Made by a program: the position numbers and the translations under genes
Notes under the pieces: model-generated
The model's input: only the letters and a program-made list of their open reading frames with translations
Database searches by the model: none
Told to the model about the DNA's origin: nothing
NCBI GenBank assembly: GCA_043810165.1
Contig: JBDROJ010000019.1
Coordinates: forward strand, 17,524 to 81,523
From: a bacterium
GTDB lineage: Bacteria > Patescibacteriota > Patescibacteriia > Magasanikbacterales > GWA2-37-8
Direction: 5' to 3'
Length of the DNA: 64,000 nt
In this document: positions 6,605-63,097 of the stretch, one piece after another
How the letters are laid out: every line of letters starts with the position of its first letter
Numbering within the stretch: the stretch's first letter is position 1

Positions 6605-8530
6605 ATGATATCAGTCAAAACTAAAATACTAATCTACCTAATATTTCTGGTATCTTTTTTTTCCTTTACACATCAATCGGTAGCAGCACAAGATTATTGT
6701 ATCGGCTGGTTGGCCAATAAAAATACCATCACATGCCTAGGAGTGTCTCATTACAAAGACTGCCAACCGGTCAGTAACTCCCTAACTAAATATAAAGCGA
6801 TTATTCCCTGGGGTTCAGAGTCACAGCCTACCCCTACTTTACCAAAAGACTTTCACCTACTAACCTCAAATATATATTCTGATGCAACAAAGTGTAATAC
6901 TGCTATTGCCAGTATTAATACAAAAGGATTTTGCGTTCACCACAAAAAAAATAGATGTATATCCAAACACATCGATAGTCCGGCTGACTGTTCCAAGTCA
7001 AATCCTACCAATTACAAAACATATAAAGAGTGCTACGATATACTAACAGGTAAAACAAAAACCACTTGCACCAAACACGCAGACTGTGTAGGTGGCCGCT
7101 TTTGTCTGTTATCTAAGTGTTACGCCATAACCGATTTACATATTCATACAGATAAAAAATGTAAGACGGATAAAGATTGTACTTTTGACAGTAAGCCGGG
7201 AGTCTGTAAATCAATGTATAGTCTTGGCTCTACCGCGTTTTCTGCTGGCAAGTCACCTAATGTGCCTGATGTATACCAAAGCTATTGTTTCCTTCTTGAC
7301 CCTGTTGTCACACCAATAAAAAAAACAATCACCTGGAAATCAAAAATACCTGACATTAGTATTAGAATACCAGGCCTAACCTTTGCTAGCATTCAAGACT
7401 CTATTACATTAGATGATGACGGACGCAAAATTATTAACATTCCTTGGGTCGGTCAATACATAACAGCAGTATATAAATTTGCCTTGGCCTTGGCCAGCGT
7501 AGTGGCTGTAGTTATGTTAATAATTCAAGGCGTAACAATCATGATGTCTGGTGGGGGTGAAGCCAAACAAGGTGCATATAAAAAAATACTACAAATATTT
7601 GTTGGCTTAGGCATAATGTGGGGATCTTATGCTATCTTGTATAATATCAATCCAGACTTGGTTAAATTCAAAGCTTTAGCTGTGACGATGGTTGAAAAAG
7701 AAGAAGCTAAATTTGAATCAGATTCAGTTAATCTTGGTACTGGGTCGGCAGCTGGCTCATCAGCCGCTGGCGCTTCAGGACCAAGTTACTCATCATCTAA
7801 AAATAAATACATAATACCATCTTACAAACAATGGAAGGGTGCTTGGGCCAAAGAAACTTTACCAATGAGCAGTAGCAAAATGAGCAGTAAAGGCTGTGTT
7901 TTTGTCTCTTATGCAATTGCCCTTCAAGCATTATACAATGATGGAACAAACCCATCTTCTTTAAAAAAATTATATACAGATGCTAAACAAGGCGATAATG
8001 TCAATATTGATCTTTACTACCAAAAAGATTTTATGAAAAATAGGTATCCGGGTTTAAAGGTTACTAGGATGAAGCGACCAGCAAAAATCAGCGACTTTAC
8101 CAGTGCCTTGGATCAAGGCAAACTCATAGCAGTCCGTGTTTATACAAGCGCCTTTACAGGCGGAGGACATCAATTTGTTATATATGATTATTATGAAAAA
8201 GGTGGTAAATATTATGTAAAAGTTTCAGACCCAGGCACGGGTGATAGTGCATATACTCGTTGCACCAAGGATATGAGTGGAAAATACGCTAAAGATGACG
8301 CAAAAATAAAAGACAAATTAAAAAAAGATAGAGATTTGAGTGAACAAGGTAAAACTAGTGGGTTCCTATGTGGTGATCCATATAAATTATCTCTTCAATC
8401 ACGTTGCCAGAATACTAATTGTGCTGGCCCAAAAGGAGTGGCTTTTGGACCAAATAATTATCCTTTGGAATACATAATGCGTGTAGGTGTAATGATGAAA
8501 GACTCTTTTGTATTTGAAAGAACTAACTGA
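6605..8530 (+). CDS. Secreted cysteine-rich protein, paralog A. It has an N-terminal signal peptide, Cys-rich repeats, a conserved double-TM hairpin, and a C-terminal papain-like (CHAP/C39-like) Cys...His domain
   Basis: Signal peptide ILIYLIFLVSFFSFTHQSVAA. Cys motifs such as TCTKHADCVGGRFCLLSKCY. The central ~130-aa block TITWKSKIPDISIRIPGLTFASIQ...VYKFALALASVVAVVMLIIQGVTIMMSGGGEAKQGAYKKILQIFVGLGIMWGSYAILYNINPDLVKFKALAVTMVEKEE is nearly identical to the one in the next gene. The C-terminus has GCVFVSYAIAL (candidate nucleophile Cys) and GGGHQFVIYDYY (candidate His). Confidence 0.55.
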   Translation: MISVKTKILIYLIFLVSFFSFTHQSVAAQDYCIGWLANKNTITCLGVSHYKDCQPVSNSLTKYKAIIPWGSESQPTPTLPKDFHLLTSNIYSDATKCNTAIASINTKGFCVHHKKNRCISKHIDSPADCSKSNPTNYKTYKECYDILTGKTKTTCTKHADCVGGRFCLLSKCYAITDLHIHTDKKCKTDKDCTFDSKPGVCKSMYSLGSTAFSAGKSPNVPDVYQSYCFLLDPVVTPIKKTITWKSKIPDISIRIPGLTFASIQDSITLDDDGRKIINIPWVGQYITAVYKFALALASVVAVVMLIIQGVTIMMSGGGEAKQGAYKKILQIFVGLGIMWGSYAILYNINPDLVKFKALAVTMVEKEEAKFESDSVNLGTGSAAGSSAAGASGPSYSSSKNKYIIPSYKQWKGAWAKETLPMSSSKMSSKGCVFVSYAIALQALYNDGTNPSSLKKLYTDAKQGDNVNIDLYYQKDFMKNRYPGLKVTRMKRPAKISDFTSALDQGKLIAVRVYTSAFTGGGHQFVIYDYYEKGGKYYVKVSDPGTGDSAYTRCTKDMSGKYAKDDAKIKDKLKKDRDLSEQGKTSGFLCGDPYKLSLQSRCQNTNCAGPKGVAFGPNNYPLEYIMRVGVMMKDSFVFERTN

Positions 8531-11943: not shown

Positions 11944-12080
11944 TTTGTCATTGCGAGGAGGAGTGTAAGCGTTTCTGTCATTGCGAGCGTAAGCGAAGCA
12001 ATCCCGTTTTTACAGAATCAACGGGATTGCTTCGCTTACGCTCGCAATGACAGACATGCCTTGCTCGCAATGATAGAACA
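11944..12080. repeat. Nested palindromic repeat element, copy A (TGTCATTGCGAG family)
   Basis: tctgtcattgcgagcgtaagcgaagcaatcccgtt[loop]aacgggattgcttcgcttacgctcgcaatgacaga, flanked by extra tcattgcgagg / ctcgcaatga half-sites. Lies between radA and recG. Confidence 0.8.
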
Positions 12081-20567: not shown

Positions 20568-20752
20568 TCTGTCATTGTGAGGAGTGTAGTGTTACTGTCA
20601 TTGCGAGCGTGGCATTTCTGTCATTGCGAGCGTGGCATTTCTGTCATTGCGAGCGTAAGCGAAGCAATCTCGTCATCATAGAACCAACGGGATTGCTTCG
20701 TCGCTCCACTCCTCGCAATGACAGTGAATCGCTCGCAATGACAAACAAAAAT
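20568..20752. repeat. Nested palindromic repeat element, copy B (three tandem left half-sites)
   Basis: gtcattgtgaggag...ctgtcattgcgagcgtggcatttctgtcattgcgagcgtggcatttctgtcattgcgagcgtaagcgaagcaatctcg...cgggattgcttcg...cctcgcaatgacag...gctcgcaatgacaaac. The 64-aa ORF 20564..20758 lies inside it and is spurious. Confidence 0.8.
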
Positions 20753-24611: not shown

Positions 24612-24815
24612 CTAGTTGGCGCTTACCAACGAAAGGATCTTCTTGAGGGTGATGACCCGACCCAACACAGAGACATACACTCCCTTGGTCATGGACGCAC
24701 CCACACGTACTTGCGGAGCAACTTGCACTGATCCGCCCACGCCTTTGCGACCGATATTCAGGCGTTTTCCTTTGCGCTGAATGGACTTGCCGAACTTGAA
24801 CCAGCCACTAAGCAT
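24612..24815 (-). CDS. Small basic protein (67 aa), translationally coupled to the upstream zinc-ribbon gene. It has a weak bL27-like flavour
   Basis: ATG at 24815 lies 5 nt after the upstream TAG, with an AGGAAG SD overlapping the end of the upstream gene. The sequence is MLSGWFKFGKSIQRKGKRLNIGRKGVGGSVQVAPQVRVGASMTKGVYVSVLGRV.... GC-rich codon usage. Confidence 0.4.
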   Translation of the reverse strand: MLSGWFKFGKSIQRKGKRLNIGRKGVGGSVQVAPQVRVGASMTKGVYVSVLGRVITLKKILSLVSAN

Positions 24816-24819
24816 AGCA

Positions 24820-25496
24820 CTACTTCCTGCTACTGGACTTGGTGCGACCACGGGAAGACGGCTTCTTCGGCTCCTTGGGTAGAGCAACCACGTCGTCGCC
24901 ATCCTCGTCGCCCTCCATGTAATGCTTGGCGTAATGCTTGGCCGTCTCACAGAACATCTCCTCGATGGGCTCGGCCAGGGCGTCCATCATCTTGCCCATG
25001 TTGAAGTCCAACGAGTGCTTGGCACCGGCCAGGAGCTGATCCTGCAGTGGAAGCTTCTTCTCGCTGTGCATGGACCATGCCGTACCCGCGCCAAGGATGA
25101 GCACGTTGGCCAAGGTCCGCTCCACCGCTCGCAAGGTCTGGCTGGAGTCGATGAACTCCTCGGGGTAAGGCAGGTTGTACTTCTTACACACTGCCCGCAG
25201 ACCGCGCACGAACGGGCTGGTGACCACACGGTTACCCAGAGCCATCTTGCCACCCTTGGCAAACGAACCGCCGATGATCTCGCCCATCTTTCTCAGGAAC
25301 CTGGGTTTCTCGTTCTCTTCCATCTTCTTCTTCTCGTTTTTAGGGTTGATATCTTCGTCGTACTCACTGTCTTCAGAGTCAAACCAGCCAATCTCTTCAC
25401 CACACAACAGGCACTTCTCAGCGAATTCCTCCACACTTGCTTCACAGGCCGGACAAACCCAATCAGATATTTCTTCTGTTCCTGTGTTAACTTCCA
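24820..25496 (-). CDS. Zinc-ribbon protein of unknown function, encoded in a GC-rich island
   Basis: A perfect SD (AGGAGG, reverse complement of 25501-25509) lies 6 nt upstream of the ATG at 25496. The N-terminus is MEVNTGTEEISDWVCPACEASVEEFAEKCLLCGEE (a C4 ribbon). GC content is ~53% against ~33% in the surroundings. I recognise no family motif. Confidence 0.55.
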
Positions 25497-25696
25497 TACT
25501 GACCTCCTGTTTTTTCTCTTGTTCTAAATGATTGTTCACTATCTGGAGTTGGTTTTCAACGAACTAATTCATCACTTGATCAATCCTTAATTATATATTA
25601 AATAACCCATTCTGTCAATACTTTCCACAGAATTACCTATTTATATAGCTTTATGTAAAATTAGCAAAATATTATATGTCATCTGTGTCGAAATAC

Positions 25697-28950: not shown

Positions 28951-29112
28951 AATTAATATTGTCATCGCCGACAAAGCATGCCTGTCATCGCGAGCGTTGT
29001 TTTCTTGTCATTGCGAGCGGTTCACTGTCATTGCGAGGAGCAAAGCGACGAAGCAATCTCGTGTTTCTATAGTGACGGGATTGCTTCGCTTACGCTCGCA
29101 ATGACAGACACA
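28951..29112. repeat. Nested palindromic repeat element, copy C
   Basis: cctgtcatcgcgagcg...cttgtcattgcgagcgg...ctgtcattgcgaggagcaaagcgacgaagcaatctcg[loop]gacgggattgcttcgcttacgctcgcaatgacag. Lies between parB and parA. Confidence 0.8.
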
Positions 29113-29154: not shown

Positions 29155-29922
29155 TTATCCTTCAAAATACTCTAGAAATTCTTTGCCTAGACGTTCATAA
29201 GCCTTAGCACCTTTGCCCTTGCGATCATAATGAAAAATGCTAGCACCATAACTGGGAGCTTCAGCCAAACGCACGGTGCGAGGTATTACTGAACGAAATA
29301 TACTGTCTGGAAAATACTTGTATAATTCGTTCATCACGTCAGATGATAAACGATTACGCTTATCAAACATAGTTAGAACCGCTCCGATTATGTTTAAACT
29401 CGGCTTTAATCCTTCCCTAATCATTTCAATGGTGCGCAATAATTGGCCAAGCCCTTCCAAAGCATAATATTCTGCCTGCACAGGAATTAAAAGATGGTCA
29501 GCCGCTATTAAACCGTTTAAGGTCAGAACACCCAAAGAAGGCGGACAATCTATTATGATATAATCATACGCATGGCTAACTTCACTAAGTATATCAGCTA
29601 ATCTATTTTCCCGATTTTCTTCGTTAACTAATTCCACGGCCGCTCCGGCCAAATCAGGTGTGGCCGGCACCACACGCAAGCCTTCGTGAGCAGTATTTTG
29701 CACTACATCATGCAAGCGAACCTGTCCGGCTATACTATGATATAGCCCTTTGTCCAGATTCTGATAATCAATTCCTAGACCGGAAGTGGCATTGCCTTGA
29801 GGATCCAGATCTACAAGCAACACAAACTTACCAGCTTCAGCCAAGGCCGAAGCCAGATTTATAGCAGTAGTGGTCTTACCCACTCCACCTTTTTGATTAA
29901 CAATCGCAATAATTTGTGACAT
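29155..29922 (-). CDS. parA: Chromosome partitioning ATPase ParA/Soj
   Basis: Deviant Walker A KGGVGKTTT. 255 aa. Confidence 0.85.
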   Translation of the reverse strand: MSQIIAIVNQKGGVGKTTTAINLASALAEAGKFVLLVDLDPQGNATSGLGIDYQNLDKGLYHSIAGQVRLHDVVQNTAHEGLRVVPATPDLAGAAVELVNEENRENRLADILSEVSHAYDYIIIDCPPSLGVLTLNGLIAADHLLIPVQAEYYALEGLGQLLRTIEMIREGLKPSLNIIGAVLTMFDKRNRLSSDVMNELYKYFPDSIFRSVIPRTVRLAEAPSYGASIFHYDRKGKGAKAYERLGKEFLEYFEG

Positions 29923-43710: not shown

Positions 43711-44451
43711 TTATATTTTCCTCTCCTCTGGCCCGGTATATTCAGCTTCTGCTGTACTTAAACGACGTAAACCGTCTTTACTGTTCATCTCTTCGTAGAT
43801 ATGAGCTACCAAACCGGGCACGCGACCAATAATGAAAAATCCTTTGGCCATACGCCAATCAAAACCCATATCAGACATGACTGCACCCATAGCACCATCG
43901 ATATTAAGAGGTAGTCTTTTGGACAAAACCTGATTTAATTCTTTGTGTACTTTTTCAGCTAATTGACAATGTTTGCTATAAATACCAGTTTCTTTGGCTA
44001 CTTCAAACAGAGCTTGGCTACGTGGATCATGTTCTAAAATTTTATGACCATAACCTGGAATACGAATTTTCTGTTGTTTTAATTGCTTGATCAAACCAGC
44101 CACATCCGATTTGGCAACATTTTCTTGAAAAAATTTGGCCGCACCTTCAATAGCACTACCATGTAGTTTACCCATAGACAAGATACCAGCAGCCAAAGCC
44201 GTATGCATGCTATTACCAGTAGAAACAACTGTACGTGCTGTCATGGCCGAAGAAACGCCAATACCATGATCAATAGCAGCTGTAAACAAAGCGTTCATCA
44301 TTCTAGTCTGGTTAGTATCAGGTAACTCACCTTTTAAAACCAAAAAAATAGTTTCTGCAAAACTTTTTTCATGGATCAGATCTTTGAGATCGTAACCACG
44401 AATGGTTTCTTTCCCATCACTTACATTACTAATCGATGTTTTCCATTGCAT
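43711..44451 (-). CDS. Short citrate-synthase-family protein (citryl-CoA lyase-like)
   Basis: 246 aa with the citrate synthase signature IPGYGHKIL and an Asp-containing C-terminal region. Directly downstream of the SCS-like alpha and beta genes. Confidence 0.55.
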   Translation of the reverse strand: MQWKTSISNVSDGKETIRGYDLKDLIHEKSFAETIFLVLKGELPDTNQTRMMNALFTAAIDHGIGVSSAMTARTVVSTGNSMHTALAAGILSMGKLHGSAIEGAAKFFQENVAKSDVAGLIKQLKQQKIRIPGYGHKILEHDPRSQALFEVAKETGIYSKHCQLAEKVHKELNQVLSKRLPLNIDGAMGAVMSDMGFDWRMAKGFFIIGRVPGLVAHIYEEMNSKDGLRRLSTAEAEYTGPEERKI

Positions 44452-44462
44452 ATGGTTTTAAA

Positions 44463-45395
44463 TTATGAATAAGGTTTAGCTAGTTCAACTAAATGTTCGT
44501 ATGTATCGGCTATCATTACTCCTACTTCTGATAAAGCCTTTTCCTTTTCAGCCGCACCTTTACCCCGTTCTACAATCGCACCAGCATGACCGACATTCAT
44601 TCCCTCGGGTAAAACACCCGCAAACTTACCACCTATATATATGGCCAAAGGCTTGGTAAATTCTTGTTTATTTATCAAATCAACAATTTCAAACTCATAA
44701 CTACCACCGTGCTCTCCAAAAATCACTACCACTTTAGTTTGTTCATCTTTTTCAAACATTTTTAACAAGTCAGCGTAAGTAGTACCCATTAATAGATCTC
44801 CACCCACATGAACCACTGTACTTTGGCCTAGACCTGCTTTGCGAATCTGCCAAGCCAATTCATTAGTCATACCGCCGGAACGAGAAATTGCACCCACACT
44901 GCCTGGTTGGAATATTTCTTCAACCAACGGGCCACCCACTACCCCAACTCTGGCTTTGCCCGCTGAAATATACCCTAATGAACTTGGCCCTATAATACGA
45001 ATATCCTTTTCTTTGGCAGCTGCCAGACAATAAGCTGTGTCTTGAATAGGCACTCTTTCCGTCATGATATTTATAACAGAAATGTCATTTTCAATTGCTT
45101 CCATAATTGCCTGCTTGGTGGCAAAAGGAGGCACATAAATGGCGCTGGTGATATTGTGACGAGATTGCTTCGCTTCGCCTGCCTGCCGGACAGGCAGGCT
45201 CGCAATGACAGATAATACTTCGGCCACGGTATCAAAAACCGGCACGCCAAAAACTTGTTCACCGGCTTTGCCAGGGCGCACGCCACCTACCAATTTGGTG
45301 CCATAGTCAAGCATGGCTTGAGTGGCTCGCTGGCCTTCTTTGCCTGTTATACCTTGGATCAAAACTTTTGTATCTTGATTTATCAAAATACTCAT
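44463..45395 (-). CDS. Succinyl-CoA synthetase alpha-like subunit (CoA-binding; citryl-CoA synthetase small-subunit candidate) carrying an in-frame repeat-derived insertion
   Basis: MSILINQDTKVLIQGITGKEG...phospho-His loop MNVGHAGAIV. It aligns with SucD, except for an extra ~17 aa (SLPVRQAGEAKQSRHNI) encoded by a copy of the TGTCATTGCGAGC...GAAGCAATCTCG repeat. Confidence 0.7.
   Translation of the reverse strand: MSILINQDTKVLIQGITGKEGQRATQAMLDYGTKLVGGVRPGKAGEQVFGVPVFDTVAEVLSVIASLPVRQAGEAKQSRHNITSAIYVPPFATKQAIMEAIENDISVINIMTERVPIQDTAYCLAAAKEKDIRIIGPSSLGYISAGKARVGVVGGPLVEEIFQPGSVGAISRSGGMTNELAWQIRKAGLGQSTVVHVGGDLLMGTTYADLLKMFEKDEQTKVVVIFGEHGGSYEFEIVDLINKQEFTKPLAIYIGGKFAGVLPEGMNVGHAGAIVERGKGAAEKEKALSEVGVMIADTYEHLVELAKPYS
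45160..45215. repeat. Repeat element copy D, inserted in-frame inside the SCS-alpha-like CDS
   Basis: Minus-strand sense reads tctgtcattgcgagc-cctgcctgtccggcaggcagg-cgaagcgaagcaatctcgtcac. The family flanks are present around a perfect 8-bp-stem GC hairpin. Local GC is much higher than the surrounding gene. Confidence 0.7.
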
Positions 45396-46033
45396 ACTTG
45401 TTTGGAAAATATTTGTTTATTTTTCTTAATTTTCTTCAAGTCCCAATTCCACCATTCTAATTTTACCAACTTGTTTTTAGTTTGTTCCGAAAAACGATCG
45501 CTGACTTTTTTGGCCGGCACACCAGCCCACACTTCATAAGGACCAATCTTGGTGTTTTGTTTCACTACTGAACCGGCTCCCACTACAGCGCCATTACTAA
45601 TCTCTGTTCCAGATAATATCACTGAATTAGCTCCAATCCAAACATCATTTCCTATTTTTACTTCAGTGCCTAGGTCTTTAAAATCCTTGTCCCCTATAAT
45701 ATGCCTAATCGGGTAAGTAGTAATTTTTTTAACATCATGATCGTTGGTAGAGACAATAAAAACACTCCTGGCTATTGAACAAAATTTACCGATACTAATG
45801 CCATGTTCAGATGAAGCAAATAGCTCGGTAGAATTATTGCAATATGAATAATCTCCGATACTTACCTTGCCAGTTATAGCGACATTTCTTAACAACTGCA
45901 CTCTCTTGCCAAATCTAACCAAGCCCTTTAAAAAATCTTTCTTACAAATATATACCGGCGGTTTTAACTTTATACTTGGATTTTTTATCCTAATATAATT
46001 GAGAATAAAAAACTGTTTGATTATTTCCCACAT
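45392..46033 (-). CDS. Left-handed beta-helix (hexapeptide-repeat) acetyltransferase, CatB/Vat/MAT-like
   Basis: Hexapeptide repeats IGDYSY..., IGKFCSIARSVFIV, IGNDVWIGANSVILSGTEISNGAVVGAGSVV. Confidence 0.65.
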   Translation of the reverse strand: MWEIIKQFFILNYIRIKNPSIKLKPPVYICKKDFLKGLVRFGKRVQLLRNVAITGKVSIGDYSYCNNSTELFASSEHGISIGKFCSIARSVFIVSTNDHDVKKITTYPIRHIIGDKDFKDLGTEVKIGNDVWIGANSVILSGTEISNGAVVGAGSVVKQNTKIGPYEVWAGVPAKKVSDRFSEQTKNKLVKLEWWNWDLKKIKKNKQIFSKQV

Positions 46034-46042
46034 ACTTTTTAT

Positions 46043-47188
46043 TTAATTATTAATCATCTGTGCCAATATTTGGGCTGTTTGACTCATGGATACTTCTTTG
46101 CCAAATAATTTTACTTGCAGACCATTACGCTTTGCGCAATCCTTCATTAACCGCATGCCTTGTTCTTCATTTGGCCCGGCCCGACGAACAACTATTGGAT
46201 AATTAGGCTTAACTTCATCCAGGGCATTAATAATCCCTTGAAAAGTTTCAGCCACATCAGTAAAATTAGCCACCCCACCAGCAATCCACAAACCTTTTAA
46301 ACCAGGTCTAGATAAAACAACCTTGGCTAATTGGCAAACCTTTTCTTTAGGAGGATTACCAGAATATTCAGTATAATTAGCTGGCTTTAATCCAACCTTG
46401 TACAAAGCATCCATATTGGCGATACTAGCACCTCCACCAGAAAACAAAACCGCTATATCTCCATCCATTTCAATGTATCTACTGGCCGTGCCACGATAAT
46501 AGTCTTTGCCTTGATCAATTTTCTTTACCACTATTTCGCGCTCGGTAAGTGACCGACCCATCATGGTGCGCGCTTCTAGATCATTCCAATCTTCATGTCT
46601 AAATATGGCGTCCTCATCCAAAGCAATTTTTGCATCAACTGCCAACCACTTTCCATCTTTTGTTTTTACCAGGGGGTTAATCTCTACCAAACGAGCGTCT
46701 TCCTCTATAAAACACCTCCATAATTCCTTGGCCAAAGGAATATCGATATCTATCACTTCTTTTCTTATATCCAGGTAGTATTTCTCTATCTCTTGATCTG
46801 GAACAACTTCAATATCAACCCCACCTTGCTGACTGTAAACCAAAACCGGTTGTTTTTTGTTGGTATCATAGGTAATAGACAGGTAATATTCTTCTGCAAT
46901 ATCTAATTTCTCTTCAATGCGTACTGCCGTCACATACTGGTTCCTCACTTGCATGTCAAATAATTCTTTACAAGCTTGTTTAACTTGTTGGGCTGAAGAA
47001 CAAGGTCTGATAGCATTATTTTTACCACGACCTCCGGATAATACTTGCGCCTTTACCATTACATTCTCAGTCTCTAATCCTTCGTATGCTTGTACATAAT
47101 CATCACCACGCCTAACAACCACACCTTTGGGTATGGATATACCATATTTATCAAAAATATTTTTCCCTTCAAACTCGTAGAGATTCAT
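46043..47188 (-). CDS. Succinyl-CoA synthetase beta-like ATP-grasp subunit (citryl-CoA synthetase large-subunit candidate)
   Basis: MNLYEFEGKNIFDKYGISIPKG matches the SucC N-terminus. ATP-grasp and CoA-ligase domains. 381 aa. Confidence 0.7.
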   Translation of the reverse strand: MNLYEFEGKNIFDKYGISIPKGVVVRRGDDYVQAYEGLETENVMVKAQVLSGGRGKNNAIRPCSSAQQVKQACKELFDMQVRNQYVTAVRIEEKLDIAEEYYLSITYDTNKKQPVLVYSQQGGVDIEVVPDQEIEKYYLDIRKEVIDIDIPLAKELWRCFIEEDARLVEINPLVKTKDGKWLAVDAKIALDEDAIFRHEDWNDLEARTMMGRSLTEREIVVKKIDQGKDYYRGTASRYIEMDGDIAVLFSGGGASIANMDALYKVGLKPANYTEYSGNPPKEKVCQLAKVVLSRPGLKGLWIAGGVANFTDVAETFQGIINALDEVKPNYPIVVRRAGPNEEQGMRLMKDCAKRNGLQVKLFGKEVSMSQTAQILAQMINN

Positions 47189-47194
47189 AATATC

Positions 47195-47521
47195 TTAAAA
47201 ATCCATTCTAAATTCCTTGCCCCAATCTTTAAAACCTAAACTCTCATACCATTGATGCACATGAGTTTTAAAATAACGGGTAGTGCCAATTAGTTTGTAA
47301 CAATCTCGGTCTTTGGCCTCTTGAATTACAGCTTTAACAAGCTCGGTGCCAACACCTTGCTTGCGGTAATCTTCCTCAACAAATACATATTCTAACAGTC
47401 CGTATGGCTGTTCACGCACATTATATATTAAATACAAAAAAGCATAGCCAGCGATTCTTTCTCCATCTTTGGCTAAAATTTTAATAGCCTTAGAAGCTTG
47501 TTCTTGTTTTTCTATTTGCAT
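47195..47521 (-). CDS. GNAT-family N-acetyltransferase
   Basis: 108 aa with the acetyl-CoA-binding motif RKQGVGTELVKAV. Confidence 0.6.
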   Translation of the reverse strand: MQIEKQEQASKAIKILAKDGERIAGYAFLYLIYNVREQPYGLLEYVFVEEDYRKQGVGTELVKAVIQEAKDRDCYKLIGTTRYFKTHVHQWYESLGFKDWGKEFRMDF

Positions 47522-48465
47522 ATAATTTCTTTTAAAATTTTTCCTAATTTAATTGTGCAAAGACCGCCAGCTTCTTTCTCATAATCGCCTGATACTATAT
47601 TGTAATCCACTAAATCAGTTTCATTATATTCAATTAAGTCCCACTTCTTTTTATTATACTTTTGTTTTTGGTCTTCACTTAATTTTGCATTATTAAATAC
47701 AACACTGTCTAATTTACGCGGTAGATAAGTCTGCAATTGTGAAATAAATTCACTTAATTTAGTAGGTCCTGTCTCTCCGTCTATCTCATAAGCATTACCA
47801 ACTATATATATAAATTTAGCTGAAGAATCGGTCATGGCTTGCTTTAAACCCTGGGGCAACAGGGTAGCCACAATACTACAATATAAACTACCCGGACCGA
47901 TGAATATATAATCAGCTTGCTCAATCGCCTGTTTAGCACCCGCATAAACCCGTGCATCCGGCTCCAACCAGGCTTTTTTGATTCTTATTTTTTTATCATA
48001 ATCGGGCCGGTCAATTAGGCCCTCTGTTTTTATAATATCGCCATTTTCTAATTCAACTGCCAAATCAGTTTTGTCTAAAGTTGTTGGATAAACCTTGCCC
48101 ACCGCCTGCACGACCTGTTCTAAAGCTCGTACCGCGCAGACATAGTCTCCCCCATACTGTTCAGCCAATACTAAAAATAAATTGCCCAAATTATGGCTGT
48201 CTAATTTACCAACATTCTTAAATCTGACACGATTAAACATTGCCTTGAGCATGCTATAATCATGCATGGACATGGCCAAAACTGCACGCAGAATATCACC
48301 CGGAGGCAGAGTGTCAAATTCATGACGTAAACGGCCAGAAGATCCGCCAGAATCGCTCATGGAAACAACCGAAGAAATATTTAATAAATCTAAATTCTGT
48401 TTTAAGGCTTGAGTGGTAATGGCTGAACCATTGCCTCCGCCTATTACTACTGCATTTTTTTTCAT
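47512..48465 (-). CDS. YvcK/CofD-family protein (UPF0052 gluconeogenesis factor-like)
   Basis: MKKNAVVIGGGNGS...SMSDSGGSSGRLR matches the YvcK/CofD GGGxG...DDGGSSG signature. The ORF-track N-terminal extension (to 48534) runs into repeat copy E and is probably not translated. Confidence 0.6.
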   Translation of the reverse strand: MKKNAVVIGGGNGSAITTQALKQNLDLLNISSVVSMSDSGGSSGRLRHEFDTLPPGDILRAVLAMSMHDYSMLKAMFNRVRFKNVGKLDSHNLGNLFLVLAEQYGGDYVCAVRALEQVVQAVGKVYPTTLDKTDLAVELENGDIIKTEGLIDRPDYDKKIRIKKAWLEPDARVYAGAKQAIEQADYIFIGPGSLYCSIVATLLPQGLKQAMTDSSAKFIYIVGNAYEIDGETGPTKLSEFISQLQTYLPRKLDSVVFNNAKLSEDQKQKYNKKKWDLIEYNETDLVDYNIVSGDYEKEAGGLCTIKLGKILKEIICK

Positions 48466-48477
48466 AAATTTTTGTTT

Positions 48478-48640
48478 TGTCATTGTGAGGAGCGTAGCGT
48501 TGCTGACATTGCGAGGAGCGTAGCGACGAAGCAATCTCGCCTAGTTATATTGTAACGAGATTGCTTCGCTTACGCTCGCAATGGCAGGAAGACTTGGCTC
48601 GCAATGACAGCAACGCTACGCTCCTCGCAATAACAGATTA
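48478..48640. repeat. Nested palindromic repeat element, copy E
   Basis: ttgtcattgtgaggagcgtagcgttgctgacattgcgaggagcgtagcgacgaagcaatctcg[loop]cgagattgcttcgcttacgctcgcaatggcag...gctcgcaatgacagcaacgctacgctcctcgcaataacag. Confidence 0.8.
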
Positions 48641-54726: not shown

Positions 54727-54882
54727 ATGGGCGTTTCTGTCATTGCTAGCGTAGCGCTATTGTCATTGCGAGGAGCGGAGCGACGAAGCAATCTCGCTGC
54801 CCTAGAACCAACGAGATTGCTTCGCTTACGCTCGCAATGACAGAAACGCTATACAGGCTCGCAATGACAGATTTGACTAATT
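54727..54882. repeat. Nested palindromic repeat element, copy F
   Basis: gtttctgtcattgctagcgtagcgctattgtcattgcgaggagcggagcgacgaagcaatctcg[loop]cgagattgcttcgcttacgctcgcaatgacagaaacgct...gctcgcaatgacag. Confidence 0.8.
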
Positions 54883-58751: not shown

Positions 58752-58876
58752 GACCATTGTCCTGGCGCCGGCTTACTTTTGCTTTACAGCTATCATCAGC
58801 GTTGGGAAGCTTAACTACCGTGTTCGGGATGGGAACGGGTGTAACCTTCTCACTTGAGGCACCAAGACAATGGTCT
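58752..58876 (-). rRNA. rrf: 5S ribosomal RNA
   Basis: Helix I inverted ends agaccattgtc...gacaatggtct. The minus-strand sense contains CCCGTTCCCATCCCGAACACGGTAGTTAAGC, the 5S loop B/C consensus. Confidence 0.8.
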
Positions 58877-59212
58877 CTTGTTTTTTCCAGGGTATTGTTT
58901 TTAAGCACTGCTTAGTGTTTTTGTCGTATGCTCGGCTTATTAGTACGCCTCGGCTTAACTCTTTACAGAGCTTAGACCTGGCGCCTATCAACCTCGTAGT
59001 CTACAAGGAGCCTATAACGAATATTAATCTTGAGGACGGCTTCACGCTTAGATGCTTTCAGCGTTTATCCGCGCCAAACGTAGCTACCCAGCAATGCCCT
59101 TGGTAGGACAACTGGTACACTAGAGGTTCGTCCACTCCGGTCCTCTCGTACTAGGAGCAGGTCCTCTCAATATTCAACGCCCACAGCGGATAGGAGACCG
59201 AACTGTCTCACG

Positions 59213-59974
59213 CATGTTCTTCCATTATTACTAATGGCACAGACTATACCTTCATCCTCTCCAACAACAATGGAGGAGGAGCTGACGTGTGATAAGTGAT
59301 ATAAGTTATTTTTTGAACACCTATCTCATCCTTCTGTCTGCCAGAAACAGACATCCAGAATCAGTCGTTACGGGGGTATAATTTATGTTGTCTTAAAAAA
59401 TTCTTCAAAACATCAGAGGTATTAGTTCTCTTTTTGGAATAATTTAATTCCTTGAACTTATCAACCAATTCAGCTGCCTTAACAAATTTTTCTATGGAAA
59501 ATTTTCCTTGTAGAATTTTATTTATTTGAAAAGCAACTAAAACATGTTCTTTTTTGAGAATTATATAAGGCTTCAATAATTTCAAAATCTTAATTACCGA
59601 CTTAAAACCAACTATGGTATATTCGGTCATATCATCATTGCGATCTCTGATATAACCTACTCCTGCAAATGTTTCTTTAAGCCATTCTAAATGACTCTTT
59701 ATGACTCTTTTTATCAGTCTTCTGGTAGAAAACTACGCTGGCACGGATCTGAAATCCATACACATAGTCTTTTCTACGGACTAATTGGAACATTATACAG
59801 CCATCTCCATCTAGAAATCCTGCGATATAAGATTTTGTTGTGGACGAAATTATTGACATAAATCAACCTTCCCACGGCATTGCCCTCTAAAAAGTTCGGT
59901 AAATTTAGTAGGGTTTCACCGTTATGAGTCAGATTTATTGTATCATATTTCTACGATAGAACGCAATGTAGTTT
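59213..59974 (-). mobile_element. Intron (probably group I) in 23S rRNA at the E. coli ~2593 (I-CreI-type) site, carrying a LAGLIDADG homing endonuclease ORF
   Basis: The conserved 23S run ...CAGAACGT|CGTGAGACAGTT... is split. Plus 59201-59212 ends ctgtctcacg and the exon resumes at 59975 acgttctgaaccc. R/S-like elements (CCGTAACGACTGA, GGTATAGTCTG) sit in the 3' part. Confidence 0.7.
59361..59859 (-). pseudogene. LAGLIDADG homing endonuclease (single-motif, I-CreI-like) disrupted by a 10-bp tandem duplication
   Basis: IAGFLDGDGC motif in ORF 59677..59859. A second ORF 59361..59630 continues the protein. Removing one copy of the tandem atgactcttt|atgactcttt (59691-59710) fuses them into one ~163-aa frame (...KKSHLEWLKETFAGVGYIRDRNDDMTEYTIVGF...). 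Confidence 0.7.
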
Positions 59975-60007
<33 letters not shown>

Positions 60008-60020
60008 TGGCGAACAGCCA

Positions 60021-60080
<60 letters not shown>

Positions 60081-61374
60081 CGCCGTCTATATGGACTATC
60101 GGGCGAGATCAGCCTGTTATCCCCGGAGTAGCTTTTATCCGTTGATCTTCCACCTTCCTATGTAGGGTGGTCGGTTCACTAACTTCTGGTTTCCCAACTG
60201 CTCGGGTTGTAGCCCTTGCAGTAAAGCTGGCTTTTGCGTTTGCACGTCCAGCTCGGTTTCCATCCGAGCTAAGCCAACCTTTGTAAACGCCTCCGTTACT
60301 TTTTGGGAGGCATCCGCCCCAGACAAACTACCCACCAGACACTGTCTCCCCTTCCTGATTCAAGGAAGGAAATTAGGTACAAAACTAAACAAGGGTGGTA
60401 TCTCACTGGCGATCCGAAGATCTTCCACCTATACTGAACATGTTTAGCCTTATACCAATATCAAGTTGTAGTAAAGCTTCACGGGGTCTTTTCGTCCGGC
60501 TGTGGGTAACCGGCATCTTTACCGGTCTTGCAATTTCACCGAGTCCCTCGTTGAGACAGTCTCCCCATCGTTACGCCATTCGTGCGGGTCGGAACTCACC
60601 CGACAAGGAATTTCGCTACCTTAGGACGATTATAGTTATCGCCGGCGTTCATCAGCGCTTCAGTTTCCTGCTTTGTCATAAAGACTAACAAGTCGCCTTA
60701 ACGTTCTGACACTGGCCAGGCGTCGCCCCCTATACTTCAGCTTACGCTTTTGCAGGGAGCTGTGTTTTTGATAAACAGTCGCAGGGAGTCTTTTGTTGTA
60801 GCCCCGATTTGAGTCGGGGCGGGCCTTATCCCGAAGTTACGGCCGCTGTTTTGCCGAGTTCCTAAACGAGGGTTATCTCGTACGCCTTGGTCTTCTCGAC
60901 CTACCTACCTGTGTTGGTTTACGGTACGGTTACCTATAGCCTAGCGGTTTCTAGCTTTTCTAGGCATTCTCTTACCTCAAATTGACTCTACCCGAAGGCT
61001 TTGTCTCCATCTTGCGATACGTGTATAACCGAAACACGCTTAAAGATTAAAAATGCGCACTAAAAACCAAACTATAAGCAGTGCAGGAATATTAACCTGC
61101 TGATCCATCGGTTACGCCTTTCGGCCTGGCCTTAGGACCGACTAACCCTGGGATGATTCACGTTGCCCAGGAAACCTTGGGTTTTCGGCGGGCAGGATTC
61201 TCACCTGCCTTTTTGTTACTTATGCCTGCATACTCGCTTCCTAACGCTCCACCAGTCCTCGCAGATCCGGCTTCAACGCAGATAGGAATGTTCCTCTACC
61301 ACGCCTCGACTAAGTCGAGACATTCGCAGCTTCGGTACCATGTTTAGCCCCGTTACATTCTCGGCGCTAAAACT

Positions 61375-61441
<67 letters not shown>

Positions 61442-62012
61442 GAGAATTAAAACCACCTTGCGTGCACTTAACATGGATTTTGGGACCTTAGCTAGCGATC
61501 TGGGCTGTTTCCCTTTTGACTATGAAGCTTAGCCCTCACAGTCTGACTCCTAAGTTTTTGACTACCGGCATTCGGAGTTTGATTGAGGCGGGTATCCCGA
61601 AGGACCCCGACCTCATCCAGTGCTCTACCACCGGCAGGAACACTTAAGGCTAGCCCTAAAGCTATTTCGAGGAAAACCAGCTATTACCGAGTTCGATTGG
61701 AATTTCTCCGCTATCCACAGCTCATCCCCGCGTGTTGAACGGCGCGTGGGTTCGGACCTCCCCCCGATTTTCATCGGGGCTCATCCTGGCCATGGATTGC
61801 TCACTCGGTTTCGGGTCGTGTAACAGAAACTATTGACGCTGGTTAAAACTCGCTTTCGCTGTGCCTACGGACCATAGGCCCTTAAGCAAGCTACTGCTAC
61901 ACACTCGCAGGCTCATTCTTCAATAGGAATACTATCATCCCGACTAAGTCGGGACTTTAGCTCTTTGTAAGCATATGGTTTCAGATACTATTTCATCGCC
62001 CTCAACGGGCTA

Positions 62013-62049
<37 letters not shown>

Positions 62050-63097
62050 ATCACCAAAAGTATTTAGCCTTAGACCATAGTCGGCCTAGATTCAGACAGG
62101 ATTTCACGAGTCCCGCCCTACTCAAGGACACTAACCATGATTGCAATTATTCTTTTCGCGTACGGGGCTTTCACCCTCTTTGACGGCTCTTTCCATAGCC
62201 TTCTGCTAAAAATAATGCTCTCACCTGATTTAACAGAAAATCAGCGTTAGGCCTTACAACACCGTATAAAAAACGGTCTGTTCCTTTAAACTACAGTTCA
62301 AAATCAATTCGAAAATCAATCAATCACCATAGAAACTTTTATACGGTTTGGGCTGTTCCCTTTTCGCTCGCCGCTACTTAGGGAATCTCTTCGATTTCTT
62401 TTCCTCTGGGTACTGAGATGTTTCACTTCCCCAGGTCTTCTTTATATACCTATGTATTCAGTATATAATGCCGCGTAAAACGCAGCGGGTTCCCCCATTC
62501 GGACATTCCCGGATCAAAGGTTGCTTGCCACCTCCCCGAGACTTTTCGCAGGCTGCCACGTCCTTCTTCGTCTTTTGGTGTCTAGGCATCCACCATATGC
62601 TCTTAGTAAAATTGCATACGACAAAAACACTAAATTGTGCTTTTGTTTCATCCTGTACCGAGCCTATTGAAGACAAGCTCCGGTCAGGACGATTTATTTT
62701 GCCTGAATCAAACGGACGAAGTCTACGCTTGCTTGCGCTTGACTTATATTTTGATTCAGGACCCTGGTTGAGTTGTCAAAGTACTTTCAAGTCCTATTCA
62801 TGAACTACCATCTTGACAATGCATGTAAAAGACTGGAAAAAAAGAACCGCTAGTAAGCGGCCTTTAAAACAATAACTGTTTTGAGTTTAACCGCTTGGAT
62901 GAATTGAGTAAAAAATTTGTACTTGTTTTAACATTTTGTTTGCAAGTTATTTTACCCAGAGGTCCAAACTGTTTAAGCTCTGATTGGACGTGGTGTCCAG
63001 ATGCATATCGGGACAATTTCACGTGCTCATAATAATACATTAAAACAAAAAACTTGTCAAGCTGACAAGTTTGCACAGGTGTGGATAAATAATGGAG

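Follow-up and report, generated by a model that had tools for sequence, protein, structure and literature searches.

A TGTC-tagged, REP-like palindromic unit inserted in frame into an acyl-CoA ligase gene of a CPR bacterium

Results

The host gene and its operon

The window, by which we mean the whole 64,000-nt stretch of DNA from an uncultured bacterium of the Candidate Phyla Radiation (CPR) analysed here, contains a minus-strand operon (Table 1), with a hexapeptide acyltransferase gene between those of the beta and alpha subunits and with a gene overlap at 45392-45395. Does the alpha gene encode a subunit of succinyl-CoA synthetase (SCS)? An earlier note, made from the sequence alone, had called it succinyl-CoA-synthetase-alpha-like, and fold and domains are indeed SucD-like. 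Among solved structures the alpha protein comes closest to SCS alpha chains (E down to 1.5e-65); 6hxq, the small subunit of citryl-CoA synthetase, matches with E 8.4e-52, and the model resembles E. coli SCS alpha with a TM of 0.82-0.83 (Foldseek). As an enzyme assignment, however, the label goes too far. The alpha protein scores 277.5 bits against the NCBIfam SCS-alpha model NF004230 (cut-off 336) and 269.8 against TIGR01019 (cut-off 353.2), and the beta protein is also under its NCBIfam SCS cut-off. The beta protein bears the ACL citrate-binding domain PF16114 (E 2e-34), and the product of 43711..44451 reaches 301.8 bits against the NCBIfam citryl-CoA lyase NF004869, above the cut-off of 212. 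Judged from these scores, the alpha protein is probably not part of a true succinyl-CoA synthetase, and the operon looks like a two-step, ACL-type citrate-cleavage system. The phospho-histidine loop is intact, as the note had said: GHAGA (269-273) is unchanged and H270 is invariant in the alignment, as are the other catalytic and nucleotide-binding residues.

Table 1. Genes, repeat features and loop inserts in the window and in orthologous loci.
Feature	Position or locus	Strand	Remarks
SucD/CcsB-like alpha subunit, NDP-forming acyl-CoA ligase, 310 aa	44463..45395	-	Pfam CoA_binding + Ligase_CoA
Beta subunit, ATP-grasp + ACL citrate-binding domain	46043..47188	-	Pfam PF08442 + PF16114; canonical length in window
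Citryl-CoA lyase-like gene, directly downstream of alpha gene	43711..44451	-	Pfam Citrate_synt C-terminal part
In-frame singleton unit, TGTC-tagged REP-like family	45160..45210	-	51 nt = 17 codons, V63-R79
Nested 21-nt GC palindrome CCTGCCTG-TCCGG-CAGGCAGG	45178..45198	.	apex of in-gene unit; encodes roughly L67-G73
Repeat cluster, intergenic	11946..12075	.	opposite-orientation units forming a long palindrome
Repeat cluster, intergenic	20570..20743	.	three tandem 23-nt-spaced 13-mers, central dimer, mirrored copies
Repeat cluster, intergenic	28983..29106	.	13-mer/12-mer family matches
Repeat cluster	48478..48635	.	5' end of CofD-like ORF 47512..48534 (-)
Repeat cluster, intergenic	54738..54869	.	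13-mer/12-mer family matches
Ortholog insert, GTCAT[T/C] superfamily, TGTCATTGCGAGCGAAGCGAAGCAATC family as in window	L110, P0028		same codon position; full two-arm palindromes
Ortholog insert, GTCAT[T/C] superfamily	L094, P0020, P0063		encodes VIL[N/S]E...[Q]NDK
Ortholog insert, GTCAT[T/C] superfamily	L109		encodes VISTGATEG...ARNDI
Ortholog insert, GTCAT[T/C] superfamily	L099		encodes VIPEQHRES...GRGMT
Ortholog insert, GTCAT[T/C] superfamily	L119		further member
Ortholog insert, outside the superfamily	L095		GRDAPPGRL
Ortholog insert, outside the superfamily	P0017		GRDVALQRLY
Ortholog insert, outside the superfamily	L105, L115		GTGRDLSVQ
Ortholog insert, outside the superfamily	P0002		RDRSRPVPT
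Ortholog insert, outside the superfamily	L086, L128, P0037		PSPPLQRWRRGG and related peptides
Pair with/without insert	P0028 / P0098		core identity 94%
Pair with/without insert	L115 / L141		core identity 95%
Pair with/without insert	L128 / P0120		core identity 91%
Pair with/without insert	P0063 / L146		core identity 91%

A repeat family in the window

The main repeat of the window is defined by a 13-mer, TGTCATTGCGAGC, and a 12-mer, GAAGCAATCTCG. The 13-mer has 26 matches with at most 2 mismatches where 1.14 are expected, an enrichment of about 23-fold that was reached by none of 100 shuffles; the 12-mer has 15 matches against 3.84 expected. One copy of each lies within the alpha gene (13-mer at 45198-45210, 12-mer at 45160-45171, both on the minus strand). 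The remaining good copies all fall into the five clusters of Table 1, which are wholly or mostly intergenic; the longest version of the CofD-like ORF extends about 57 nt into its cluster. In the clusters, units of the form TGTCATTGCGAG[C/G]-N6-11-GAAGCAATC[T/C]CG face one another across a spacer of 13-15 nt, and extra 13-mers at 23-nt spacing precede some of them. The part at 20596-20743 folds with -80.3 kcal/mol (z = -9.4). Other GC-rich spots of the window (29620-29700, 50000-80, 3620-90) are not unusually structured (z -1.3 to +0.1). Folded singly, an intergenic unit consists of a TGTC tag, a 5-bp ATTGC/GCAAT stem around the weak interior GA-GC-GTAA-GC-GAA, and a CTCG tail.

The copy in the alpha gene carries a second, nested palindrome

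The sense strand here reads tctgtcattgcgagc-ctgcctgtccggcaggcagg-cgaagcgaagcaatctcgtcac, exactly as the earlier note had given it, and the in-gene unit spans TGTCATTGCGAGC … GAAGCAATCTCG. With its surroundings it reads ...gaagtatta tct gtc att gcg agc ctg cct gtc cgg cag gca ggc gaa gcg aag caa tct cgt cac aat atc acc agc... The ORF stays open over all 310 codons, with a translation that includes ...AEVLSVIASLPVRQAGEAKQSRHNITSAIYVPPF..., and direct reading of the sequence finds all three frames of the unit open. Both the 13-mer and the 12-mer match the family exactly and stand in the order and orientation expected of it. The note's central proposal, an in-frame insert derived from a repeat, is thus borne out.

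What kind of copy is this? Tag (TGTC), closing stem (ATTGC/GCAAT) and tail (CTCG) are laid out as in the intergenic units and as in the unit of one ortholog (L110), and the stem closes the predicted fold. At the apex, where canonical units hold just GC-GTAA-GC, the in-gene copy has a hairpin with a 10-bp GC stem, GCCUGCCUGU-CCG-GCAGGCAGGC (RNAfold), formed by a palindrome that occurs once in the window. Since layout and closing stem are those of the family and the GC hairpin is added at the apex, the in-gene copy is a whole single unit that harbours a second palindrome, and is neither half of a broken palindrome nor a full two-arm element. It has one terminus only and no partner arm. The description as a miniature palindromic element is therefore not supported, and the strong hairpin belongs to the nested palindrome only. 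Taken over 76 nt, the region around the unit folds with -26.3 kcal/mol and is only modestly unusual (z = -2.1).

The nested apex sequence is a small repeat in its own right. A near-identical CCTGCCTG-CCGG-CAGGCAGG recurs in three other CPR loci (L087, L104 and L123), for which we estimate a chance expectation of about 0.002 in roughly 0.76 Mb from the 16 specified bases. The copies in L087 and L104 share flanking sequence, and no ORF of at least 60 aa runs across either; that in L123 lies within a 99-aa ORF adjoining a tRNA gene. Rfam, searched at the gathering threshold, gave no match at the insert or at these CCTGCCTG palindromes.

The unit occupies a loop of the CoA-binding domain

Is the repeat stretch extra, or does it merely resemble a native segment? 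The solved SucD proteins leave a gap of 13-16 residues opposite query residues ~63-80, as seen for 2yv2, 2yv1 and 3ufx, in agreement with the note's view that canonical SucD lacks the segment, and a length of 296 or 298 aa is shared by 77 of the 120 best homologs. From the anchor ...PVF[ND][ST]V to the anchor IYVPP, insert-less proteins count 14 residues (AEAARMFPDINTSA in L081, for example) and the window protein 28, AEVLSVIASLPVRQAGEAKQSRHNITSA. The window protein is thus longer by a net 14 residues (42 nt) than insert-less orthologs and than every solved SucD structure. The note's figure of ~17 added residues fits the repeat stretch, which is 17 codons long (V63-R79), and is too high for the net gain; the difference means that about 3 native codons were displaced. 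Collinear gene sequence flanks the insert on both sides.

Within the CoA-binding Rossmann domain, the unit sits between helix 57-65 and strand 82-86, in the loop that connects them. In the AlphaFold model (mean pLDDT 83.9) V63-A65 end the helix, residues 66-76 are coil and 77-80 form a short helix ahead of the strand; residues 71-80 average 55. The loop position that the note had anticipated is thus seen in the model, as a low-confidence loop. In Rossmann folds the loop that enters a strand faces away from the nucleotide/CoA site, which lies at the C-terminal strand ends, and by this analogy the insert loop would be on the opposite face. The exact window protein is known from a single contig.

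Orthologs carry many different palindromes in the same loop

Do related genes share the segment? Our ortholog set comprised 120 homologs, 80 metagenomic loci (the best 80 of 120 hits) and 3 genomic loci, together 177 unique proteins; a tree of the core protein was made by neighbour joining. Among relatives on genome contigs 3 were close; the other 77 loci are SucD genes of other phyla and served as outgroups only. The outgroup genes could be anchored in 22 of 77 cases, and all 22 have the canonical loop length.

The loop is lengthened in 37 of the 177 Magasanikbacteria-like CPR orthologs, to 20-60 residues versus 14 (6-46 extra), and across all 177 no inserts occur elsewhere in the alpha protein except in adjacent columns. 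The inserts belong to at least 8 different palindrome families, one superfamily having GTCAT[T/C]...[A/G]ATGAC ends (Table 1). The longer ones (at least 38 residues, in loci with DNA) are near-perfect palindromes of -45 to -83 kcal/mol; some orthologs, such as L107, L124 and L157, have short extensions without a palindrome signature. Nesting recurs as well: P0056 and P0007 hold extra residues amid the GTGRDLS[L/V]Q palindrome of P0082 and P0108. Altogether, inserts of the analogous kind, in frame and in the same loop, come from more than 30 independent assemblies.

A single open frame runs across the loop in 82 of 82 orthologous DNA loci, 17 of them with non-redundant lengthened loops, all of which are 3n in length and free of stops. 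By chance alone, all 17 would be 3n with a probability of about (1/3)^17. Because the search patterns lie downstream of the loop, the open frames are not an artefact of locus finding.

How old are these inserts? The orthologs nearest to the window gene lack its segment, the outcome of the presence/absence comparison that the note had proposed: at 85% core identity each, P0005 is insert-less and P0002 has another insert. By core identity, insert-bearing genes have close insert-less relatives (pairs in Table 1), and P0014 and P0017, 94% identical in the core, carry different inserts. Left junctions vary from 5 to ~10 codons past the anchor. Presence and absence at 90-95% identity, many families and varying junctions together indicate many recent gains or replacements and not one old insertion. 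Three insert families recur in other CPR loci (that of L094 in L146, that of L139 in L146 and that of L109 in L154), and within the short flanks of ortholog loci, ~6 kb either side, there was no second copy of a locus's own insert.

Is the loop special?

We made two hairpin censuses of ~765 kb of CPR loci, which gave 34 and 26 hairpins with 7 inside ORFs each time; these were too insensitive for a reliable in-gene rate, and insert rates were therefore taken from protein alignments, gene by gene. Of the 82 orthologous DNA loci, 21% have an insert in the alpha loop; for the lyase gene next to it the figure is 2 of 58 orthologs, and both genomes with a lyase insert also bear a SucD insert. In the beta subunit the loop that follows window residue 148 is variable, and 10 of 41 orthologs carry an insert of at least 8 residues in it. 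Several of these are repeat-like: that of L119 encodes VILNEAQRNEGS...AARLLQDD and that of L101 PLAGERVCSPPAKGELEG.

A native hairpin at the loop was considered as a target and rejected. Over the loop, 60-nt windows from 64 insert-less orthologs have a mean MFE of -9.3 kcal/mol, average or below along the gene, with a local GC of 0.40. The concentration of inserts in the alpha loop exceeds what purely random insertion obviously predicts; the simplest reading is an insertion pressure specific to the lineage, together with a small number of loops that are permissive.

Relation to known palindromic elements

An exact 26-nt core of the family, GTCATTGCGAGCGAAGCGAAGCAATC, was found in 105 stretches of viral contigs in IMG/VR; copies there are singletons as well as two-arm elements, CGTCATTGCGAG...CCAG-loop-CTGG...CTCGCAATGACG. 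The 80 viral loci listed range from 35% to 71% GC, and this range points to an element that crosses very distant hosts and a family spread over very different ones.

CGTC-tagged REPs have the tag CGTC, often TGTC (or CCTC), a stem of 8-9 bp starting with A-T pairs, a loop of 4-5 nt and a short, unpaired tail of consensus CCA, and form four families (Di Nocera et al. 2013, PMC3733652). They are commonly opposite-orientation dimers and mostly intergenic, downstream of ORFs; some lie wholly inside ORFs and encode 10-30 residues (PMC3733652). No dedicated transposase is known for them, Rickettsia RPE-4/RPE-6 and Neisseria dRS3 are members of the superfamily, and Bradyrhizobium CGTC-1 units vary in loop length (PMC3733652). 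Like these REPs, the window family has the tag: most window copies, and the in-gene unit with them, have TGTC ahead of ATTGCGAG, and CGTC is found in L119 and many listed viral copies, with TGTC in others. Its stem likewise begins with AT (ATTGC...GCAAT), and its five window clusters consist of mirrored units, dimers occurring in the viral contigs too. Against the consensus tail CCA, many listed viral copies read GCAAT-CCAG and the window copies GCAAT-CTCG or GCAAT-CCCG. Unlike the published REPs, the window unit has a stem of 5 bp and an interior of 12-18 nt (a 10-bp GC hairpin in the in-gene unit), its clusters hold tandem 13-mers spaced by 23 nt, the in-gene unit contains a nested palindrome, and its host is one of the CPR bacteria, which the text of PMC3733652 does not name. 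The repeat agrees in most points with CGTC/TGTC-tagged REPs as published; because its stem and loop dimensions differ, we call it REP-like and place it outside the four published families.

In behaviour the insert recalls the Rickettsia palindromic elements of the RPE-1 type, in-frame palindromes that are translated within unrelated housekeeping genes (Ogata et al. 2000, 2002, as summarised in PMC10969869) at positions judged compatible with fold and function (PMC10969869). The window alpha gene is likewise a housekeeping gene with an in-frame insert at a fold-compatible position. The likeness is one of behaviour only. RPE-1 measures ~150 bp and is Rickettsia-specific, whereas the window unit has 51 nt and unrelated sequence; nor did we find, in the literature searched, a report for RPEs of many families in the same loop of orthologs. 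Like bacterial MITEs, the elements are small, non-autonomous and multi-copy, and the full elements end in inverted repeats (GTCATTGCGAG ... CTCGCAATGAC). Unlike MITEs, the in-gene copy has a single end, and a target-site duplication could be seen at none of the junctions inspected (window, L110, L094, L115 and viral copies). Different REPs at about the same place of orthologous genes have been observed before, in two species; here the same is seen in 37 of 177 orthologs with at least 8 families and presence/absence at 90-95% identity. Searches of the literature with the DNA string of the repeat returned unrelated primers only, and no paper describing in-frame palindrome insertion in CPR was found.

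Discussion

How did a repeat unit come to lie in a gene for a metabolic enzyme? We consider it probable that a single TGTC-tagged REP-like unit inserted in frame into the alpha gene and has been tolerated there as selfish or neutral DNA. One of the genome's own units would have entered the loop between helix 57-65 and strand 82-86, either already carrying the nested GC palindrome or gaining it later at the hairpin apex, and would have put 17 codons in place of ~3 native ones, 14 more than before. As to mechanism, REP-like units may have transposed or recombined on single-stranded hairpin DNA. The insert would have survived because the frame was kept, no stop codon was introduced and the loop tolerates extra length, and it is presumably translated as part of the enzyme. 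In Magasanikbacteria-like CPR, the alpha loop and one beta loop would repeatedly collect palindromes in this way.

The earlier note saw in the 3n length and preserved frame a sign of selection and spoke of a domesticated element. Purifying selection on the host gene (survivorship), and not selection for the insert, accounts for length and frame. We found no evidence of a function of the insert. Its presence or absence at 90-95% identity, the many unrelated families and the different inserts in the 94%-identical P0014 and P0017 point to tolerated DNA. From this pattern in relatives we infer neutrality, and the insert is best seen as selfish or neutral DNA rather than as a functional addition.

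Could the loop, on the contrary, be actively targeted or functionally selected, whether by homing of palindromes or because the hairpin or the extended loop is advantageous, for instance in mRNA processing or stability in a tightly packed operon or in a protein-protein contact? The confinement of inserts to this loop and its adjacent columns in 37 of 177 orthologs speaks for it, as do the at least 8 unrelated families, the near-perfect hairpins (-45 to -83 kcal/mol) kept within a coding frame, the replacement pattern of P0014/P0017 and the gene overlap at 45392-45395, which leaves the operon without intergenic room for hairpins. Yet about 79% of the orthologs do well without an insert, insert-less genes have no native hairpin propensity (mean MFE -9.3 kcal/mol), the long hairpin was lost from the window copy or never present in it, and left junctions vary by 5-10 codons. 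The variable beta loop and the two lyase inserts, moreover, look like general pressure on permissive loops, and we regard targeting or selection as rather improbable. The inserts in relatives also bear on an assembly artefact, in which the metagenome assembler, misled by repeat k-mers, would have built a piece of the repeat into the gene. Such an error would suit a repeat with many copies in the window and a protein known, in its exact form, from one contig; the insert is nevertheless in frame between collinear gene sequences, its nested palindrome is unique in the window, and more than 30 independent assemblies have analogous in-frame inserts in the same loop, so that an artefact is very unlikely.

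Still less probable is that the segment is missing from the mature protein, removed at the RNA or protein level like an intron or intein. The strong hairpins of ortholog inserts could serve as processing sites, but the window copy has no long hairpin, Rfam finds nothing at the insert position in the window, and loops that are all 3n and stop-free would be needless if the segment were removed. No known self-splicing element is as small as 51 nt. If the loop were an old extension peculiar to a subfamily, resembling the repeat by coincidence, it would find a parallel in the signature-free short extensions of L107, L124 and L157. That reading is effectively refuted by the exact 13-nt and 12-nt matches, in correct order and orientation, to a family enriched ~23-fold, and by the closest relatives, which are without the segment. 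In-frame insertion and toleration of the genome's own unit thus remains our preferred explanation for the window gene.

The phenomenon itself is already known, and is here found in a new bacterial group. In-frame "coding palindromes" have so far been seen mainly in Rickettsia and a handful of species; CPR bacteria now show the same behaviour. What is added is the hot-spot pattern and a natural series of presence and absence. Dozens of pairs at 90-95% identity can be used to date insertions and to define junctions, and can test the movement of REP-type elements of the CGTC class. For annotation, the recurrent colonisation of the loop is a warning that length variants of CPR enzymes, and odd peptides in them like VIASEAKQS or RNDN, are repeat-derived.

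We put forward more tentatively, as a reading with a minor chance of being right, that the alpha and beta loops are a true insertion hot spot in which unrelated palindromes are gained, nested at the apex and replaced on short evolutionary timescales, the cause of which would be targeting of the position by the elements or a useful hairpin or extended loop. If true, the hot spot would allow the movement of REP-type elements to be followed in nature, and it would show selfish palindromes creating protein loop diversity in reduced genomes.

Results

The alpha subunit is not the only product of the ligase operon with a loop that lengthens in some orthologs. The beta-subunit gene (46043..47188, minus strand) has a separate variable loop after residue 148, in which 10 of 41 orthologs carry inserts of at least 8 residues, several of them of clear repeat origin; the loop of the window's own beta subunit has the canonical length. 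In the citryl-CoA lyase-like gene downstream of SucD, inserts of 9–12 residues occur in only two of 58 orthologs (L094 and L128), where the peptides NFPRTPSWK and IREDSPSTPSSK occupy one common loop. Each of these genomes has an insert in SucD as well. The two ligase genes, beta and alpha, are separated by an acyltransferase gene, the stop codon of which overlaps the alpha start codon by 4 nt.

Coordinates of repeat-related and neighboring features (L-numbers in this table denote orthologous CPR loci)
Feature	Location	Strand	Remarks
GC-rich hairpin CUUGGUACUGGGUCGGCAGCUGGCUCAUCAGCCGCUGGCGCUUCAGGACCAAG	window 7732-7786	+	within ORF 6605..8530
ORF holding GC-rich run	window 24820..25539	-	239-aa acidic/basic protein
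Hexapeptide-repeat acyltransferase gene	window 45392..46033	-	Vat/CatB-like by NCBIfam, scores below cut-offs
Part of repeat cluster overlapping an ORF	window 48478-48534		5' end of CofD-like ORF 47512..48534 (-)
Perfect 20-nt palindrome CCTGCCTGCCGGCAGGCAGG	L087:6672-6691, L104:3794-3813, L123:12514-12533		
Beta-subunit loop sites in orthologs	L101:3976-4025, L119:3788-3822, L115:1133-1167 and other loci		

Does the window hold further palindromes that are read as protein? The GC-rich hairpin folds at -30.3 kcal/mol (z = -4.69) and is read through in frame as LGTGSAAGSSAAGASGPS, which falls in a linker of a 641-aa protein of secreted or membrane-like character. It may represent a second coding palindrome, of a family other than that of the SucD-insert repeat. 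At the CofD-like gene, the longest open reading frame starts inside the repeat cluster (MLRRYAPRNVSNATLLTMT...). The true start is probably a downstream methionine, and the repeat-derived N-terminus is therefore likely an artefact of ORF calling.

Apart from one base in the loop, the perfect palindrome present in three CPR loci is identical to that nested in the window's insert. In L087 and L104 it is not spanned by any ORF of at least 60 aa. The L123 copy lies inside a 99-aa ORF, with a tRNA gene about 100 nt upstream of the palindrome, and no Rfam family matched at any of the three sites.

Elsewhere in the window, successive 40-nt windows across 24713-25244 reach at least 65% GC, compared to a genome average of 38%, and this run is possibly foreign DNA. 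The rRNA region (58760-62616) is compact and spaced: the 23S rRNA measures 2680 nt over the full 2925-position model, and the 5S gene is located about 1.07 kb from it.

Discussion

How far does the repeat family extend beyond this genome? Its 26-mer core is matched exactly in 105 stretches of viral contigs, and the contigs shown (L161-L240), which carry two-arm elements as well as singletons, range from 35% to 71% GC. Judged from these exact matches and the breadth of base composition, the repeat family spans very distant hosts and occurs also on putative phage DNA.
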